Part shown: positions 73 to 8,331 of the stretch, piece by piece
How the letters are laid out: every line of letters starts with the position of its first letter
How positions within the stretch are numbered: position 1 is the first letter of the stretch
Origin: a virus
Taxonomy: Duplodnaviria; Heunggongvirae; Uroviricota; Caudoviricetes
Strand: one strand, 5' to 3'
IMG/VR virus record: IMGVR_UViG_2703718835_000001
Location: 1-19,694 of that record
DNA: 19,694 nt
The notes under the pieces: generated by a model
Database searches by the model: none
Told to the model about the DNA's origin: nothing
The model's input: only the letters and a program-made list of their open reading frames with translations
Position numbers and translations under genes: made by a program

Positions 73-930
73 ATGAGCACCATCCTGAAATGGGCGGGAA
101 ATAAAACCGCCGTAATATCCGAACTGAAAAAACATCTTCCTGCTGGTCCGCGACTAGTTGAACCTTTCGCGGGTTCCTGTGCTGTGATGATGGAGACGGA
201 TTATCCCTGCTATCTGGTTGCGGATATTAATCCTGATTTAATCAACCTCTATAAAAAGGTTGCCGCTGATTGTGAATCGTTTATATCTCGCGCCAAAGTT
301 TTATTTGAGATCGCAAACAGGGAGGTGGCTTATTACAACATAAGGCAGGAGTTTAATTACTCAACTGAAATTACTGATTTCATGAAAGCGGTATATTTCC
401 TGTATCTCAATCGTCACGGTTACCGTGGGTTATGTCGCTATAACAAGAGCGGGCATTTCAACATTCCCTACGGTAATTATAAAAATCCGTATTTCCCTGA
501 AAAAGAAATTCGCGCTTTTGCAGAAAAAGCCCAGCGAGCAACGTTTATCTGCGCCAGCTTTGATGAAACGCTGGCGATGTTGAAGGCGGGGGATGTGGTG
601 TATTGCGATCCGCCTTATGACGGTACGTTTTCCGGCTATCACGCTGACGGCTTTACTGAAGATGACCAGTATCACCTGGCATCCGTTCTTGAACATCGGT
701 CATCAGAAGGACATCCGGTCATTGTTTCTAACAGTGACACATCCTTGATCCGTTCGCTGTATCGCAATTTTACTCACCACTATATCAAGGTAAAACGCAG
801 CATCGGCGTAGCAGCTGGTGAGAGTAAATCAGCAACAGAAATCATTGCTGTTTCCGGGCCGCGCTGCTGGGTGGGATTTGATTATTCGCGTGGCGTGGAT
901 AGTTCTGCCGTGTACGGAGTACGTGCATGA
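73..930 (+). CDS. dam: DNA adenine methyltransferase, Dam family (probable GATC N6-adenine MTase)
   Basis: 285-aa ORF with GGAGGT ribosome-binding site upstream. N-terminus 'LKWAGNK...[11 protein letters not shown]' (AdoMet-binding motif I) and catalytic 'DPPY' motif. Collinear similarity to E. coli Dam throughout, e.g. 'FLYLNR.GY.GLCRYN' and 'VYCDPPY'. Confidence 0.9.
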
Positions 931-3341
931 GCCATGCCGATATGAGCAACTGCTGCGGCTTTAACGAGGCTGCCGCATCGTTCTCATGGAACAGCCCGAA
1001 AAAGGCCATTAACCCTTATCTGGACCCGGCGGAAGTTGCGCCGGTTTCTGCGCTTTCAAACCTGATCACTCTGTACGCTGCCGATAACGAGCAGGAACAA
1101 CTGCGCCGCGAGGCACTGAGTGATCAGGTCTGGGAGCGTTATTTCTTTAATGAATCCCGTGATCCTGTCCAACGCGAAATAGAGCAGGATAAGCTCATTA
1201 GCCGGGCAAAGTTGGCGCATGAGCAGCAGCGTTTTAACCCGGACATGGTCATTCTGGCAGACGTCAGCGCCCAGCCCTCCCATATCAGCAAGCCGCTGAT
1301 GCAACGTATTGAATACTTCAGCAGCCTGGGCAGGCCAAAGGCTTATTCCCGCTATTTACGTGAGACGATTAAGCCATGTCTGGAACGACTGGAGCATGTA
1401 CGCGACAGCCAGCTATCTGCATCTTTTCGTTTTATGGCAAGCCATGAAGGGCTGGACGGCCTGCTGATTCTGCCTGAAATGAGTCAGGATCAGGTGAAAC
1501 GCCTGTCTACTCTTGTCGCTGCGCATATGAGCATGTGCCTTGATGCAGCTTGTGGTGATTTGTATGCCACCGATGACGTTAAGCCAGAAGAAATCCGCAA
1601 GACATGGGAAAAGGTGGCAGCGGAAACCCTGCGTCTGGATGTCATCCCGCCTGCGTTTGAGCAACTCCGTCGGAAAAGAAACCGCCGTAAACCCGTGCCC
1701 TATGAACTCATTCCGGGTTCGCTGGCGCGTATGTTGTGCGCCGACTGGTGGTACCGGAAATTATGGAAAATGCGTTGCGAATGGCGGGAAGAGCAGTTGC
1801 GTGCTGTCTGCCTGGTCAGCAAAAAAGCATCTCCCTATGTCAGCTATGAAGCCGTGATGCATAAACGTGAGCAGCGCCGCAAGTCACTGGAGTTTTTCCG
1901 TTCTCATGAACTGGTGAACGAAGAGGGCGACACGCTGGATATGGAAGACGTGGTAAACGCCAGCAGCAGCAACCCGGCGCACCGCCGCAATGAGATGATG
2001 GCCTGTGTTAAAGGTCTGGAGCTTATCGCGGAAATGCGCGGTGACTGCGCCGTTTTCTACACCATTACCTGTCCGTCACGTTTCCATTCCACGCTCAATA
2101 ACGGCAGACCAAACCCAACCTGGACAAATGCGACGGTAAGACAAAGCAGCGATTATCTGGTCGGCATGTTTGCTGCATTTCGTAAGGCGATGCACAAAGC
2201 CGGGTTGCGCTGGTATGGCGTGCGGGTGGCTGAGCCGCATCATGACGGTACAGTTCACTGGCACCTGTTGTGTTTCATGCGCAAAAAAGACCGCCGCGCC
2301 ATTACTGCATTGTTGCGTAAGTTTGCCATCCGTGAAGACCGCGAGGAACTGGGTAATAACACTGGTCCACGCTTTAAATCTGAGCTGATAAACCCGCGCA
2401 AAGGAACGCCGACAAGCTACATCGCGAAATACATCAGTAAGAACATTGACGGGCGTGGTCTGGCTGGCGAGATCAGCAAGGAAACGGGTAAATCCCTGCG
2501 TGATAACGCTGAATACGTTAATGCCTGGGCGTCTCTGCATCGTGTTCAGCAATTCCGCTTCTTTGGTATTCCGGGACGTCAGGCTTACCGTGAACTTCGC
2601 TTGCTGGCTGGTCAGGCGGCAAGGCAACAGGGTGACAAAAAAGCAGGTGCGCCGGTACTGGATAACCCGCGTCTTGATGCCATTCTGGCTGCTGCTGATG
2701 CTGGTTGTTTTGCCACCTACATCATGAAGCAGGGCGGCGTACTGGTTCCCCGCAAATATCACCTCATCAGAACCGCTTATGAAATCAACGAAGAGCCAAC
2801 CGCCTATGGCGATCACGGTATTCGTATTTATGGCATCTGGTCACCCATTGCAGAGGGCAAGATCTGCACTCATGCAGTGAAGTGGAAAATGGTTCGTAAG
2901 GCCGTTGACGTTCAGGAGGCGGCAGCCGACCAGGGCGCTTGCGCCCCTTGGACTCGTGGCAATAACTGTCCCCTTGCTGAAAATTTGTACCAACAAGGGA
3001 AAGACAAATCAGCTGATGGAGATACCAGAACGGATATCACCCGCATGGATGACAAGGAGTTGCACGATTACCTGCACAGTATGAGCAAAAAAGAGCGCCG
3101 GGAACTGGCAGCAAGGTTACGCCTGGTGAAACCGAAACGGCGTAAAGACTACAAACAGCGAATTACAGATCATCAGCGACAGCAGCTCGTGTATGAACTG
3201 AAGTCCAGGGGATTTGATGGCAGCGAGAAAGAGGTCGATTTACTGCTTCGCGGCGGCAGTATTCCGTCAGGAGCAGGCCTGCGTATCTTCTATCGAAACC
3301 AGCGTTTGCAGGAAGATGATAAGTGGCGAAACCTGTATTAA
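927..3341 (+). CDS. A: Rolling-circle replication initiation endonuclease, P2 gpA family
   Basis: 804-aa ORF. Contains '[13 protein letters not shown]' (HUH-type metal-binding motif) and '[12 protein letters not shown]' (catalytic tyrosine region), as remembered for P2 gpA. The start overlaps the dam stop (ATGA); the true start may be a downstream Met. Confidence 0.88.
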
Positions 3342-3433: not shown

Positions 3434-3453
3434 TACTGTAAATATAAACAGTG
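3434..3453 (+). promoter_or_regulatory. LexA (SOS) box overlapping a sigma70-like promoter
   Basis: TACTGTAAATATAAACAGTG fits CTGT-N8-ACAG with an AT-rich spacer (consensus TACTGTATATATATACAGTA). It overlaps a candidate -10 (TATACT/TACTGT), with a -35-like TTTACA at 3411-3416, about 40 bp upstream of the ATG at 3494. Confidence 0.65.
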
Positions 3454-3493: not shown

Positions 3494-3682
3494 ATGCAGG
3501 ACTATTTTTTGGAGTCTTTGAAGCTCCAGCGCATTGATTTTTTTCTTAAGCTTGTAGCGGCCAGTGAGTGTAGTGATGAAGAGAAGGGGCTGGCTCTGCA
3601 GTGGGTTTCTGAATTGACTGATGAACTCATGGCAAAAATCAGAAGCCACGAATACAACCGCTCAATGGATGTCATCAGCTGA
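3494..3682 (+). CDS. Small hypothetical protein (62 aa), first gene of a putative SOS-regulated operon
   Basis: Strong ribosome-binding site AGGAGG 5-6 nt upstream of ATG. Sits immediately downstream of the LexA box. No recognisable motif. Confidence 0.5.
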   Translation: MQDYFLESLKLQRIDFFLKLVAASECSDEEKGLALQWVSELTDELMAKIRSHEYNRSMDVIS

Positions 3683-3692
3683 GGTGACTTTT

Positions 3693-3926
3693 ATGCGCAT
3701 TGAAATAATGATCGATAAAGAGCAGAAGATTAGCCAGTCTACCCTGGACGCCCTTGAATCCGAGCTTTACCGCAATCTGCGCCCCCTGTATCCCAAAACG
3801 GTAATTCGTATCCGTAAAGGTAGCTCTAACGGTGTGGAACTGACCGGACTGCAACTGGACGAAGAAAGGAAGCAAGTGATGAAAATTATGCAGAAGGTGT
3901 GGGAAGACGACAGCTGGCTGCATTAA
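3693..3926 (+). CDS. DinI-like damage-inducible protein (DinI/ImpC/Tum C-terminal family)
   Basis: 77-aa product 'MRIEIMIDKEQ...LDALESELYRNL...YPKTVIRIRKGSSNGVELTGL...ERKQVMKIMQKVWEDDSW' aligns collinearly with E. coli DinI ('MRIEVTIAK...IDALAGELSRRI...EILQETWE', from memory). Ribosome-binding site GAGGTG upstream. The ORF track lists a longer 3621..3926 frame; the internal ATG at 3693 is preferred. Confidence 0.82.
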   Translation: MRIEIMIDKEQKISQSTLDALESELYRNLRPLYPKTVIRIRKGSSNGVELTGLQLDEERKQVMKIMQKVWEDDSWLH

Positions 3927-4026
3927 GAAACGTTGCTGGCGTCTGAACTTGCTTCTGGCGTCAGCAAGGTTGAACACCAAGCCCTTGCGAGGCGTTAGCT
4001 CTGTAGTGCATGTCTATGCCGCATGA

Positions 4027-4098
4027 GATCGCATGATCGTTTGAGGATCGTTTTTGCTAAGGCCCGCCAGAACTGGCGGGCTTTTGCGTAGATCATGC
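4027..4098. repeat. Cluster of four GATC (Dam) sites with a flanking 8-bp inverted repeat
   Basis: GATC at 4027-4030, 4035-4038, 4046-4049 and 4091-4094: four sites in 68 bp, against roughly 0.3 expected by chance. GCATGATC (4031-4038) and GATCATGC (4091-4098) form an inverted repeat flanking the terminator hairpin. Confidence 0.6.
4062..4085 (+). terminator. Rho-independent terminator downstream of the DinI-like gene
   Basis: GC-rich inverted repeat GCCCGCCAG / CTGGCGGGC (4062-4070 / 4073-4081) followed by TTTT (4082-4085). Confidence 0.6.
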
Positions 4099-4130
4099 AG
4101 GTGCATGAAAACCACTACATAAAGCGGGCA

Positions 4131-4156
4131 GGCGTGGCGGGGATACGAGTGCGCGC
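4131..4156. other. Putative cos (cohesive-end) site
   Basis: GGCGTGGCGGGGATACGAG followed by TGCGCGC. The first 13 nt match the remembered 19-nt cohesive ends of P2 (GGCGAGGCGGGGAAAGCAC) and 186 (GGCGTGGCGGGGAAAGCAT). The assignment rests on memory only. Confidence 0.4.
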
Positions 4157-4231
4157 AATACGGTTCGATAAGAATTCACTTCGACTATGTTTTTAGATAA
4201 TCTGGCAATAAAAGGATGAGGAGAATGGCAA

Positions 4232-5473
4232 ATGCAAAGAATAGTTTTTTACTCTTGGCAATCTGATTTAAATGGAAAATGTAATAGAAATTTAATTCAA
4301 GATGCTTTGGTTAGATCTCTAAAAGCAATAAAAAAGGATGAAACAGAAACATTGGAGCCAGTCTTGGATCGTGATACTAATGGTTTAAATGGCTCACCAT
4401 CAATTAGCGAAAGCATTTTTAATAAAATATCACTTTCAGATGTTTTTGTTGCCGATGTTTCTATCATAAATGGAAGGTCTGAGGATAAGAAGACACCTAA
4501 TCCAAATGTTTTGATTGAATTAGGATATGCAGTATCCCAGCTAGGCTGGGATAGAGTAATCATGGTCCAGAATACATTTTATGGTTCTCCAGAAGAACTT
4601 CCTTTTGACTTAAGAGGACGGAGGGTAATTGCATATACTATGGACCCTGATAGTGATTCAAAACCTGAGGTAAGAAGCTTACTGCAAGGGCGACTTGAAA
4701 CTGCATTAAGGGAGTCCTTGAGTGATTCAAGCCAAGGAGCTATTTCTTCAGGTTTAAATGCACCAATATGGTGGGGGGAGTGGTACAAGGACAATCGCAG
4801 AAGTAATTTTGGCAAATTATTTATTCGTGAAACATCGTCAAATGGTTTTCTTTTTGATTTAGTAGTTATGAATGGATCACATTCTGGGAGTATTACAGGA
4901 GAGGCGGTTTTTGTAGCTAGAGATTCAGCTTACGCTAGAATAAAAATACCTGGAAGTAATGAATTTGGCGAGTTGAGTTTTAGGCGCAGCATATTTGATG
5001 GTAAACGATATATTAGGATAAGTGAGACCGTTAGTTGTCAATACTGGCGAGGTATGGGGGCCTTTTTTGATGGTGAGTTTCGTTGTGCAGAGGATCATTT
5101 GTTTTTATTTGGTTTTGCAAATGAAATGGAACTTCAGAGATTATACAACGTTATGGGGCAATATTACTTTGAACTGAAAAAAGTGATGGAGCAAATAGGT
5201 GAGCGCGATAATCTTGATACTTTTGTCGCAAAGGCTTATCAGGGAGGAGTTAGAGGACTTTATACCATTGCGGAAGGTATGGTGATGTTTGGTAGAGAGG
5301 GCGAGATATGGGCTATTTATCTCAATGATGGTGAAATTCGTTATTTCACAAATGTACATAAATGGAAAAAAACTATTCCAAAAACTTTTGAACAGTGGCG
5401 AGAACGATTTCCAGAGATTGAAATAAATTATGGAGGTGATATCTCGACACTTCCTACACAAGAAGATTTATAG
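4232..5473 (+). CDS. Cargo protein (413 aa) with N-terminal nucleoside 2-deoxyribosyltransferase/Rcl-like (SLOG/TIR-like fold) domain and uncharacterised C-terminal domain; candidate antiphage effector
   Basis: Ribosome-binding site AGGAGA 7 nt upstream. Markedly AT-rich against GC-rich phage flanks. The N-terminal 'RIVFYSWQSD' strand and 'NPNVLIELGYAVSQLGWDRVIMV' (Glu96, codon 4517-4519) resemble the catalytic-glutamate region of nucleoside deoxyribosyltransferases ('GMELGYALSQGKYVLLV', from memory). No Walker A motif, so it is not Old-like. The C-terminal ~270 aa have no recognisable motif. Confidence 0.75.
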   Translation: MQRIVFYSWQSDLNGKCNRNLIQDALVRSLKAIKKDETETLEPVLDRDTNGLNGSPSISESIFNKISLSDVFVADVSIINGRSEDKKTPNPNVLIELGYAVSQLGWDRVIMVQNTFYGSPEELPFDLRGRRVIAYTMDPDSDSKPEVRSLLQGRLETALRESLSDSSQGAISSGLNAPIWWGEWYKDNRRSNFGKLFIRETSSNGFLFDLVVMNGSHSGSITGEAVFVARDSAYARIKIPGSNEFGELSFRRSIFDGKRYIRISETVSCQYWRGMGAFFDGEFRCAEDHLFLFGFANEMELQRLYNVMGQYYFELKKVMEQIGERDNLDTFVAKAYQGGVRGLYTIAEGMVMFGREGEIWAIYLNDGEIRYFTNVHKWKKTIPKTFEQWRERFPEIEINYGGDISTLPTQEDL

Positions 5474-5480
5474 ACAAATG

Positions 5481-5513
5481 ACCCGCGATTCGCCAACGCG
5501 GGTTTTGTTTGTT
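5481..5513. terminator. Terminator hairpin between the convergent cargo gene and Q
   Basis: Stem ACCCGCG (5481-5487), loop ATTCGCCAA, stem CGCGGGT (5497-5503), followed by TTTGTTTGTT. It lies between the cargo stop (5473) and the Q stop (5525). It is strongest for the plus-strand transcript. Confidence 0.6.
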
Positions 5514-5524
5514 CAAAAAAATTA

Positions 5525-6568
5525 TTAAGTTATGTTGGGTTCAAATGCATAAGAATCAAAACGAATTACTTGTTCATTGGCCCAGCTATTCAGTTCCTCA
5601 AAACGCTTCTGTAGGGGGATCAGTTCATTTCGAACAAAAACACGGCTGGCCTTCTCCACATCCCCAAACCCCCCGACATTATTCGGCATAATCCCCATCA
5701 TCTGTGGCGGAACACGATGCGCCGCCATCATGTCATCGCGGCTGACGTTCTTGATGTTCAGAAATTCATCTTTCGCCGCGACTTCTGACAACGGGATGAT
5801 CTGAAGCCCGTCTTTTTTGCCGTTAGGCGAGTACATAAACAGGTTGCGGAAGTTGCCCGGGCCTTTGGCGCTTTTCATTGCGTTGCGGAGGTTGTTCACG
5901 TCCTCCTGGTTCTGCGCGGCATCGGTCATGTACATGATGAAGCCTGCATGACTGCCGTTAATGTAATACTTGCGGCGGAACAGCGTGGCGGACTCGTTGA
6001 GCAGGGCTGATGGAATGGCAGAAAGATAACCGGGCAGGCCGTAGATCTCCTGGTTGATATCCGGTTCCATCAGGTGAAAAATGCTGCCTTTCGTGAACTG
6101 ATACGGCTGGGTTGTCATACCGTATTGCACAAACCAGTAGGTATCCAGGTCTAACCCGCGTCGGGTGTATTTTGCCAGAGCAGGCTCAAGGGCGATAACT
6201 TCACCGAAGCGGTTCGTGCGTTTCTCCAGGTAGGCGTTACCAAATACCAGATAGTCCTGCACAAAACGTGAAAAAGCCTGCTGGCTGAGCAGCGGGTGAG
6301 GGATGTAGGTGCTGGTCAGAATGTTGCACTTTACTGCAATCGGTGAGCTGTGATGCACGGCGGCGCGAAAGGTGCGCGCCAGCCCGTCGAAACTCACTGG
6401 CGGCTCATACCAACGATCTGTCTGTACGCATTCCACATAGTCCAGCAGTTCGCGGCGGTCCAGAACAGGAACGGGATCACCGAAGCTGAATGCTTCGGCT
6501 GAAGTTTGGTTTTTATGCTGGATCTGATTCGTCGCCGCAGCGCGGTTTTTCTTACTCTTTCCCATCAA
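5525..6568 (-). CDS. Q: Portal protein, P2 gpQ family
   Basis: 347-aa ORF, convergent with the upstream cargo gene and overlapping the P stop by 4 bp. Position and size match P2 Q (about 344 aa). Confidence 0.88.
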   Translation of the reverse strand: MMGKSKKNRAAATNQIQHKNQTSAEAFSFGDPVPVLDRRELLDYVECVQTDRWYEPPVSFDGLARTFRAAVHHSSPIAVKCNILTSTYIPHPLLSQQAFSRFVQDYLVFGNAYLEKRTNRFGEVIALEPALAKYTRRGLDLDTYWFVQYGMTTQPYQFTKGSIFHLMEPDINQEIYGLPGYLSAIPSALLNESATLFRRKYYINGSHAGFIMYMTDAAQNQEDVNNLRNAMKSAKGPGNFRNLFMYSPNGKKDGLQIIPLSEVAAKDEFLNIKNVSRDDMMAAHRVPPQMMGIMPNNVGGFGDVEKASRVFVRNELIPLQKRFEELNSWANEQVIRFDSYAFEPNIT

Positions 6569-8331
6569 AAAATCTCCACAATATTGCTGGTATTGGCGGA
6601 CTCGCCCTGCAGCGGTTCGTTAAACAGTGCGTGCATGGTTGCCCACGCCAGATCGGCGTGGCTGGCTTCTTCGCTGCGGCTGGCTTCATAGGTCGGGCGG
6701 TTGCCGCTGGCGGTGGTGGCGCGACGGATTGCCATAAATGACTGCGCAATGTCGGTGTGTCCGGCGTCAAACTCAAGACGGCGGTGGCTGATAATGTCGT
6801 AAGCCTTGAGTACCAGGGCGTTTTTAACGTTGGGGTTGTAGACAAACTCCCGGACGGCAGGAAAAAACGCTTTCACGTTCTCGTAAACCCCGTGACCAAC
6901 GCCGGTTGAGTCGATGCCGATATAGGTCACGTTGTACTGTTCGGTCAGTTTTTTGATGGCGTCAGCCTGGGCGCGAAAGTCCATCCCGCGCCACTGGTGA
7001 CGCTCAAGAATGCGAAACTTACCGCCCGGCACGGCTGGCGGTGCCAGCACCACGCATCCGGCACTGTCGCCGTTCTGCGTACCTTTTGCCGGGTCATAAC
7101 CGATCCACACTTCGCGCCAGCCAAATGGGCGCAGCGCCAGTGCATGAAAGTCGGTCCAGACTTCCCAGCTGTCCACCATGCACGCCTGCAGCTCGCTGAG
7201 CGGGAACACGGACGCGAGATCGTCCACAAACTCGCACATCAGCAGGTTCTGGTATTCGTCCGGGCTGTACTCCATGCGCAACTGGTCAAGGTCGAACAGG
7301 TTACAGCCGCCGCGCACTGCATCTTCCACGGTGACTATCTGGCGGTATTGCCCGTCTGCGCACAGCAGGCCGGGGGCCAGATTGCTGTGGGACAGGTCGA
7401 TGTCCACCTTGTCGGCTTTGTTGCGCCCACGGTTGAACAGCGCACCGGACCAGAACGGATAAGCACTGTGTGTCAGGCTGGATGGCGTGGAAAAATAGGT
7501 TTGTCGCCATTTTTTGTGAATAGCCATACCGGAAGCCACTTTGCGCAGCTCCTGGAATTTCGGTATCCAGAAATATTCATCCAGATACAGGTTGCCGTGG
7601 TAACTCTGAGCCGTGCGGGCATTGGTGCCGAGGAAGTAAAGCGTGGCCCCGTTAGGAAGCACCATCGGATCGCCTTTCAGCTCCACCTCGACTTCTTTGG
7701 CGAAGTCGATGATGTACTGCTTAAAGACGTGAGCCTGTGCCTTACTGGCAGAAAGGAAAATCTGGTTACGTCCGGTAAGCAGGGCGTCAATCAGGGCTTC
7801 ACGGGCAAAGTAAAAGGTCGCGCCGATCTGGCGTGACTTCAGCAGATTACGGATGCGGTTGGTTTTTCCTGCTTCCCACCAGTGGCGCTGGTAGTTGAAC
7901 ATGGAGGAATGGAAGATTTCTTCCAGCTTCTCAATCTGTTCATCGGTGAAAACATTCTTTTCAGGCTGACGGCGCGGGCCTTTGTTGCGGTTGGCGACGT
8001 TAGGGTTTAAATCGGCTTCGTTGCCGCCATTGTTAAACTTGCCGATCCGCGCGTGGCGCTCCGACTGGCGCGACAGCAGATCAATTTCTTTGAAATCTTT
8101 CCCTTCTTTGTGCTCCTTCATAATGAGCTGGCAGTAACGTGCGGCGGTGGTGAGCTGCATCTGATCCAGCGGCCCATAGTCACCCCACTTGTCGCGTTTT
8201 TTCCAGCTGTGAACGGTTGCAACTTTCTCGCCCAGCATTTCAGCAATGCGGGCTACGCGGTATCCCTGAAAGTACAGCAGCATGGCCTGCCGACGGGGAT
8301 CGAGATCTGCGGGTGTCAGTGTGGTGTTCAT
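6565..8331 (-). CDS. P: Terminase large (ATPase) subunit, P2 gpP family
   Basis: 588-aa ORF (P2 gpP is about 590 aa), divergent from O. The start codon overlaps the Q start region, as in P2. Confidence 0.88.
   Translation of the reverse strand: MNTTLTPADLDPRRQAMLLYFQGYRVARIAEMLGEKVATVHSWKKRDKWGDYGPLDQMQLTTAARYCQLIMKEHKEGKDFKEIDLLSRQSERHARIGKFNNGGNEADLNPNVANRNKGPRRQPEKNVFTDEQIEKLEEIFHSSMFNYQRHWWEAGKTNRIRNLLKSRQIGATFYFAREALIDALLTGRNQIFLSASKAQAHVFKQYIIDFAKEVEVELKGDPMVLPNGATLYFLGTNARTAQSYHGNLYLDEYFWIPKFQELRKVASGMAIHKKWRQTYFSTPSSLTHSAYPFWSGALFNRGRNKADKVDIDLSHSNLAPGLLCADGQYRQIVTVEDAVRGGCNLFDLDQLRMEYSPDEYQNLLMCEFVDDLASVFPLSELQACMVDSWEVWTDFHALALRPFGWREVWIGYDPAKGTQNGDSAGCVVLAPPAVPGGKFRILERHQWRGMDFRAQADAIKKLTEQYNVTYIGIDSTGVGHGVYENVKAFFPAVREFVYNPNVKNALVLKAYDIISHRRLEFDAGHTDIAQSFMAIRRATTASGNRPTYEASRSEEASHADLAWATMHALFNEPLQGESANTSNIVEIF

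Follow-up and report, generated by a model that had tools for sequence, protein, structure and literature searches.

The region around position 4131 of a 19,694-bp stretch of DNA from a tailed virus (Caudoviricetes; IMG/VR record IMGVR_UViG_2703718835_000001, hereafter the window) very probably contains, at 4102-4156, the cohesive-end site (cos) of a Fels-2/186-like prophage of the P2 family, situated beside an established hotspot for foreign genes on its Q side that here holds a TIR-like cassette. Judged by its sequence, the motif at 4131-4156 is a genuine P2-family cos site, 4131-4149 is the predicted cohesive-end sequence of the phage, and the window belongs to a member of the P2 family (Peduoviridae), namely a prophage of the 186/Fels-2 type, which is SOS-inducible. 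A preliminary description of this DNA had placed one gene, here called the cargo gene, between cos and the portal gene Q, and had called that placement atypical. The placement is borne out, since the gene (4232-5473) lies to the right of cos and to the left of Q. It is, however, normal and already documented for this phage lineage, and atypical only relative to P2 itself. Both the cos site and the position of the cargo are real, well supported and already known, and they do not constitute a new genome architecture.

As read from the window, the motif comprises ggcgtggcggggatacgag (4131-4149) followed by tgcgcgc (4150-4156). The preliminary description had reported GGCGTGGCGGGGATACGAG plus TGCGCGC at these positions, with a P2/186-like character in the first 13 nt, and both statements hold: these 13 nt match the annotated cohesive ends of 186 and PSP3 (GGCGTGGCGGGGAAAGCAT) at 13 of 13 positions and that of P2 (GGCGAGGCGGGGAAAGCAC) at 12 of 13. 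Over the full 19-mer, identity is 15/19 to 186 and 14/19 to P2; the 3′ flank TGCGCGC is identical in both phages, and the 19-mer is exactly that of Fels-2, with the form GGCG(A/T)GGCGGGGA...... that is typical of the P2 family. It is also identical to the cos site given for SEN8, a plaque-forming Salmonella phage (Felsduovirus), in PMC5427200; the SEN8 record (NC_047753) opens with the first base of the 19-mer, and its last base corresponds precisely to window position 4130. With both strands searched, the 13-mer pattern GGCGWGGCGGGGA has a single copy in the window, and allowing two mismatches yielded one additional, unrelated match. Were the G-rich motif a chance likeness, the true packaging site would lie elsewhere, as a pac site or as a cos outside the window. 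This is barely credible, given that the 13-mer appeared in 0 of 200 dinucleotide-preserving shuffles of the window and has no second copy there, and that the homology extends over about 150 bp, including a 55-bp core, correctly oriented and in the expected place, with the A/DinI genes on one side and Q on the other. Nor is there a competing site beside Q: as had been proposed, the 51-bp interval between the cargo stop (ending at 5473) and the Q stop (starting at 5525) has no comparable motif, 5474-5524 holding a hairpin and a T-run and nothing cos-like.

Alignment to the cos regions of P2, 186 and Fels-2 revealed homology well beyond the 19-mer, in keeping with the preliminary assignment. The circular junctions of P2, 186, PSP3 and P4 were rebuilt for an alignment that also included the window, six IMG/VR loci and Fels-2. 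The 19-nt cohesive ends are annotated at position 1 in the records of P2, 186 and PSP3, and the P4 record opens with the sequence of P2. Identity over 4102-4156 is 43/55 to P2, 45/55 to 186 and 42/55 to P4, values best read against the 48/55 that P2 and 186 share with each other. The common core pattern is (G/C)TGCAT-AAAACC-...-AAG(C/T)GGGC(A/G), then GGCG(A/T)GGCGGGGA......, then (T/C)GCGCGC. A "55-bp cos core" is ascribed to Ziermann & Calendar 1990 in PMC5694545, PMC9594776 and PMC2231350, and by alignment 4102-4156, with 29 bp to the left of the 19-nt end and 7 bp to its right, has the length and the limit of P2-P4 homology expected of that core. In the right flank the GCGCGC columns are invariant in an 11-sequence alignment, the first flank base being T or C. 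The reverse complement of this flank, GCGCGCA, mirrors the left flank GCGGGCA (4124-4130), so that GCGSGCR stands immediately 5′ of the predicted nick site on each strand; this mirroring of the two nick-site flanks would explain why exactly 7 bp are conserved to the right of the overhang. Two further candidate features of the core were set aside. An inverted repeat, comparable to CCGCCC/GGGCGG of P2 and P4, was sought and is weak in the window, and the T or C at the first base after the 19-mer does not serve as a marker of cargo type, as loci with the same cargo (L019 and L059 versus L089) differ in this flank.

To the left of the core the resemblance continues. Three GCATG repeats, candidate recognition elements for the terminase small subunit, precede a fourth copy that lies inside the core at 4103, and all four are on the A side of the predicted nicks. 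Four copies in 3990-4131 correspond to 28 per kb, against 1.2 per kb window-wide, an enrichment of about 23-fold, and in the alignment the upstream GCAT columns are invariant in P2, 186, P4 and the Fels-2-type sequences. Between the repeats and the core, a GC-rich hairpin followed by TTTT resembles a terminator for the rightward DinI/Tum-like operon. The fold of 4050-4095 (-24.6 kcal/mol, z = -5.07) was equalled in stability by 0 of 200 shuffles, and comparable hairpins are aligned in 186, P4 and the Fels-2-type sequences; a terminator scan made no call for this hairpin, although the folding supports a terminator. The elements common to P2, 186 and P4 all lie to the left of the nicks, except for the 7-bp mirror flank on the right, so the DNA from 4157 onwards is free to vary.

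The surrounding genes (Table 1) are those expected at such a site. The order gpA, DinI-like gene, cos and Q, with Q reading towards cos, fits the location of cos in the P2 family, and a cognate two-subunit terminase (gpP and gpM) is encoded on the same element. By analogy with 186, the LexA box and the operon behind it match the layout of the p95 SOS operon, which suggests induction of the prophage by the SOS response via an antirepressor of the Tum type.

Table 1. Features of the window around the predicted cos site, with coordinates on the 19,694-bp stretch.
Feature	Position	Strand	Basis or remark
Dam-type N6-adenine methyltransferase gene	73-930		Overlaps the gpA start; same arrangement in Fels-2 and the retron-Ec67 prophage
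Replication endonuclease gpA	927-3341		
Perfect LexA box CTGTAAATATAAACAG	3436-3451		Upstream of the small ORF and the DinI/Tum-like gene
Small open reading frame (ORF)	3494-3682		
DinI/Tum-like gene	3621-3926		
Three GCATG repeats, candidate terminase small-subunit recognition elements	Starts 4008, 4021, 4031 (4008-4035)	.	Putative function
Conserved cos block, common to Fels-2-like phages, variable DNA on both sides	4008-4156	+	blastn
GC-rich hairpin then TTTT, terminator-like for the DinI/Tum-like operon	4059-4089	+	RNA fold
55-bp cos core	4102-4156	+	Alignment identities
Predicted 19-nt 5′ cohesive end GGCGTGGCGGGGATACGAG	4131-4149	+	Aligned with annotated cosL/cos of P2, 186 and PSP3; nicks predicted by homology
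Right nick-site flank TGCGCGC	4150-4156	+	Read from the sequence, and alignment
Low-GC replaced segment: cargo cassette, terminator, recoded last ~90 bp of Q	4157 to ~5600 (listed 4157-5614)	.	
Cargo gene, 413 residues: N-terminal TIR/nucleoside-deoxyribosyltransferase-like domain, beta-rich C-terminal domain of unknown fold	4232-5473	+	
Hairpin and T-run, terminator-like for the cargo, possibly also for convergent Q	5480-5512	+	Fold -18.3 kcal/mol, z = -3.58
Portal gene Q, 347 residues	5525-6568	-	Pfam Phage_portal 7.7e-18; aligned to Q of Fels-2 and P2, W of 186
Terminase large subunit, gpP-like, 588 residues, expected cos cutter	6565-8331	-	Terminase_6N 3e-65, Terminase_6C 1.6e-49, Terminase_5 3.3e-27
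Scaffold O, capsid N	Between P and M		
Terminase small subunit, gpM-like, 216 residues	10386-11036	+	Pfam Phage_term_smal 2.2e-40

A true homologue of cos could nevertheless be a relic in a defective prophage from which nothing is packaged, in which case a "left end" of the genome would be physically meaningless. The 19.7 kb of the element that are visible, and the degraded state of some relatives (in the Pantoea locus L130/L131 the portal gene is truncated or fused, and phage 500465-1 has insertion sequences and split genes), lend this reading some weight. We consider it improbable, because Q, P, O, N and M are all full-length in the window with strong Pfam matches, the cos block is 93-99% identical to the blocks of many induced or isolated phages, and a perfect LexA box precedes the DinI/Tum-like operon, as expected of an SOS-inducible phage of the 186 type.

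Several points weigh against our interpretation. The window is 19.7 kb of the element and not the whole prophage, and its intactness and inducibility are thus presumptive. In PMC5427200, the SEN8 cos site is assigned by annotation and not by end mapping, and in the literature we found no virion-end mapping for any phage with the exact window 19-mer. The definition of the 55-bp core comes from secondary citations. At overhang positions 14-19 the window reads TACGAG, P2 AAGCAC and 186 AAGCAT, a divergence that may be immaterial, as both genome ends share one sequence. Finally, a consensus scan found no sigma-70 promoter in the 75 bp (4157-4231) between cos and the cargo start; candidates picked by hand upstream of the cargo had poor spacing and were dropped.

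The limits of the conserved DNA are sharp. A blastn search with 3930-4240 against 50,697 phage records matched 88 of them, and among the matches listed every phage alignment ends at 4156-4158 and many start at about 4008. Similarly, 1,165 of 5,426 complete Escherichia coli genomes match 4100-5700, most of them spanning only 4100 to 4156-4159; homology to E. coli prophages picks up again only at ~5582-5620, inside Q, and the whole cassette is present in just 3 of the 5,426. The G+C content is 27-46% from ~4157 to ~5600, compared with 50-57% in the flanks. Since homology ends at 4156-4159 and resumes inside Q, and G+C content drops between these points, 4008-4156 can be regarded as a fixed island beside replaced DNA. 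On the right, the DNA identity between the Q genes of the window and Fels-2 is 43-57% in 5525-5614 and 77-97% further in; these 3′ ~90 bp of Q are low in G+C (37%), and the C-terminal ~27 residues that they encode are unlike those of Fels-2 Q. Because the last ~90 bp of Q are both low-GC and divergent, the right junction of the cassette falls inside Q and not at the terminator. The Q-tail segment KRFEELN-W resembles the Q tail found beside a homologous cargo in a Pantoea prophage (L130).

How usual the placement is was assessed in 120 IMG/VR loci with the cos core pattern (L005-L124), in which Q and A were located by tblastn. Among the 28 loci with the window-type 19-mer in which Q was located, the cos-Q gap exceeds 600 bp in 23 (up to 3.4 kb), is 261-600 bp in one and is empty in four (160-191 bp). 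The corresponding counts for loci of the ...ATAGCAT type (n = 17) are 11, one and five (185-225 bp). Loci with the P2-type 19-mer (n = 26) show the reverse, 22 being empty (~180 bp), none intermediate and only four having a gap above 600 bp, in these cases more than 2 kb. In the window, cos and Q are 1,375 bp apart, with a gene in between. By eye, the empty-slot sequences bear no likeness to the window from 4157 to Q, as would follow from replacement of a ~180-bp spacer. Slots of 0.6-4.4 kb were present in 43 loci and carry 73 ORFs of 80 or more residues, of which 68 read away from cos and are convergent with Q, as the window cargo is. Diverse, mutually unrelated gene sets of the defence type occupy this one position in closely related phages: 66 of the 73 ORFs were scanned and gave matches to 37 Pfam families, including reverse transcriptases (retron/DRT), the most frequent cargo of the slots surveyed, AAA_21/AAA_15, RloB, KAP NTPases, restriction-modification proteins, SieB, AbiC, RES, SEFIR and TIR. 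In a P2-like prophage of Pantoea, a 72%-identical homologue of the window cargo itself lies between cos and the portal gene.

An atypical placement, as asserted in the preliminary description, would imply a rare, lineage-atypical rearrangement that moved a cargo of the tin/old type from the A side of cos to the Q side. P2 and 22 of the 26 P2-type loci do have a cos-Q interval of ~180 bp, with cargo on the A side, and the premise that tin/old of P2 lie on the A side agrees with our comparison. The claim of atypical placement, by contrast, does not survive the survey: Q-side cargo is present in 23 of the 28 loci that share the window 19-mer, in Fels-2, in SEN8, in the Pantoea prophage and even in four of the 26 P2-type loci; the slot has been in the literature since 1996 and 1999; and the A-side and Q-side slots are independent. 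A rearrangement of this kind is accordingly very unlikely, and a cassette in a long-standing Q-side slot is the reading that we retain.

The cargo protein combines the TIR-like N-terminal domain with a beta-rich region (residues ~180-400) that was confidently modelled (predicted local distance difference test score, pLDDT, about 90) and whose comparison with the PDB gave no convincing match. On the basis of the TIR-like fold at the domain level, the protein is likely an anti-phage effector of the NADase type with a C-terminal sensor domain. Its family is large, with >4,400 homologues, which among the matches listed are mostly ~410-450 residues long. A tblastn search of the cargo against the 50,697 phage records gave no match; at that tblastn threshold, the "TIR domain-containing protein" that phage 500465-1 carries in the same slot has no detectable similarity to it. 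A pattern scan with the cargo protein over one genome per species confirmed no relative, and look-ups of the exact protein were used instead. On an Aeromonas veronii chromosome (L135 2662-5242), a 56%-identical homologue directly follows a 212-residue ORF and a ThsB-type TIR gene; this homologue is outside any recognisable phage context.

Relatives of the cargo are also found in satellites. Klebsiella and Pectobacterium have P4-like satellites in which psu and cos are followed by a 234-residue ORF, then by a relative of the cargo with 60-62% identity, and finally by int. The 234-residue ORF (L133 3268-3972, L134 3263-3967) has no Pfam match, and neither the window nor the P2-like prophage of Pantoea contains it; the cargo family may therefore function with one gene or with two. 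Relative to cos, the Q-side slot of P2-like phages and the P4 hotspot are in corresponding positions, and this cargo family, at least, occurs in both.

A second slot lies on the other side of cos. An E. coli prophage that is 99.6% identical to the window has the same Q-side cassette and an extra HNH gene between DinI and cos, and because the Q-side cargo is the same and the HNH gene is present only on the A side of that prophage, the two slots are independent. The published gpA-gpQ hotspot is in fact two independent slots, split by a fixed cos block of ~150 bp. The A-side slot corresponds to window 3927-4007, from DinI to the first GCATG, and was compared with L129 5130-5849, L001 3219-3950 and L138 2693-3433. 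This two-slot resolution around a fixed block is a modest point of wider interest, along with the orientation bias of Q-side cargo (68/73) and the right junction inside Q. In the available text of two papers on the hotspot (PMC9122126; NAR 2026 gkag898) we found neither the side of cos, nor the orientation bias, nor the intragenic junction in Q.

Based on homology, we propose that the gpM/gpP terminase would recognise the ~150-bp block 4008-4156 and make two nicks 19 nt apart, cutting the top strand 5′ of G4131 and the bottom strand after 4149. The DNA in virions would then begin with the 5′ overhang GGCGTGGCGGGGATACGAG, and the cargo would sit at the predicted left end with its start ~100 nt away, while in the circular or integrated form it would lie between the DinI/Tum-like SOS operon and Q. 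The unconstrained DNA from 4157 would constitute the cassette slot, bounded by cos and by the 3′ end of Q; the cargo would be transcribed away from cos to a terminator that abuts, and is shared with, convergent Q, and the hairpin terminator at 4059-4089 would insulate it from the DinI/Tum-like operon. A more tentative extension, which we regard as possible although rather doubtful, is that the cos core serves as a shared left-hand recombination anchor by which defence cassettes move between P2-like helpers and P4-like satellites. Fitting this idea, in phages and satellites alike the variable DNA starts exactly 7-9 bp beyond the nick in the bottom strand, the same TIR-like family occurs in both, the slot ORFs predominantly read away from cos, and the right junction lies in the 3′ end of Q, the cassette bringing its own recoded Q tail. 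On this hypothesis, cassettes would be exchanged when compatible cohesive ends anneal or are ligated, or when the cores recombine, in either case together with a homologous crossover in Q. Rousset et al. 2022 (PMC9122126) speculate along similar lines.

For annotation, the predicted virion ends can be set at 4131/4149. The ~150-bp block 4008-4156 could be used in cosmid or transduction constructs, and the Q-side cos slot, here with a TIR-like gene, is a reliable place to seek anti-phage genes.

Comparison with known systems places the window within a well-described group. Like the window, P2, 186, PSP3 and P4 have a cos composed of GCAT repeats, core, 19-mer and YGCGCGC, placed between the replication/SOS genes and Q; in P2 and 186, unlike in the window, the DNA between cos and Q is ~180 bp and non-coding. 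Close counterparts are Fels-2 (NC_010463) and SEN8, whose cos blocks are 91-95% identical to that of the window over the aligned stretch. Their cos-Q slots are also filled, with a 565-residue ORF in Fels-2 and a 332-residue ORF plus an HNH gene in SEN8, but these cargo genes are unlike that of the window; immediately after the 19-mer both phages have C and the window T, and the A-side slot from DinI to cos, empty in the window, holds an ORF in both. The TO region of P2 (tin, old) resembles the window cassette as non-essential, low-GC, phage-exclusion cargo beside cos. Its genes are read leftwards, however, and occupy the interval from orf91 to cosR, on the opposite side of cos from the window cargo. 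The window has no cargo in that A-side position, its DinI-cos interval holding only the cos block.

That foreign genes accumulate between cos and gpQ in P2-like phages was described by Dodd & Egan 1996 and Nakayama 1999, both cited in this connection by PMC5694545 and PMC6868368. According to PMC6868368, Dodd & Egan 1996 showed that retrons Ec67 and Ec86 take the place of ~180 bp that would otherwise separate cos from the packaging-gene terminator in a 186-related prophage. The window shares the slot of these retron prophages, including its left boundary at cos, and the empty sites of 160-191 bp agree with this; the window differs in that its cargo is TIR-like, with no retron, and in that the Q terminator and the last ~90 bp of Q are also replaced. 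Rousset et al. 2022 describe cos-adjacent defence hotspots, namely gpA-gpQ in P2-like phages and psu-int in P4-like satellites (PMC9122126); further literature on such hotspots includes PMC13586616, and NAR 2026 gkag898 also names cos-adjacent hotspots. In the text seen, both Rousset et al. 2022 and NAR 2026 gkag898 bound the P2 hotspot by gpA and gpQ and leave the side of cos unstated. The present cargo is itself already on record: in the E. coli prophage that is 99.6% identical, the gene is annotated with the protein WP_053289770, which Table S5A of Rousset et al. 2022 (PMC9122126) gives as "TIR-like" in the gpA-gpQ hotspot. In P4 and P4-like satellites, as in the window, variable genes begin right after cos plus 7 bp.
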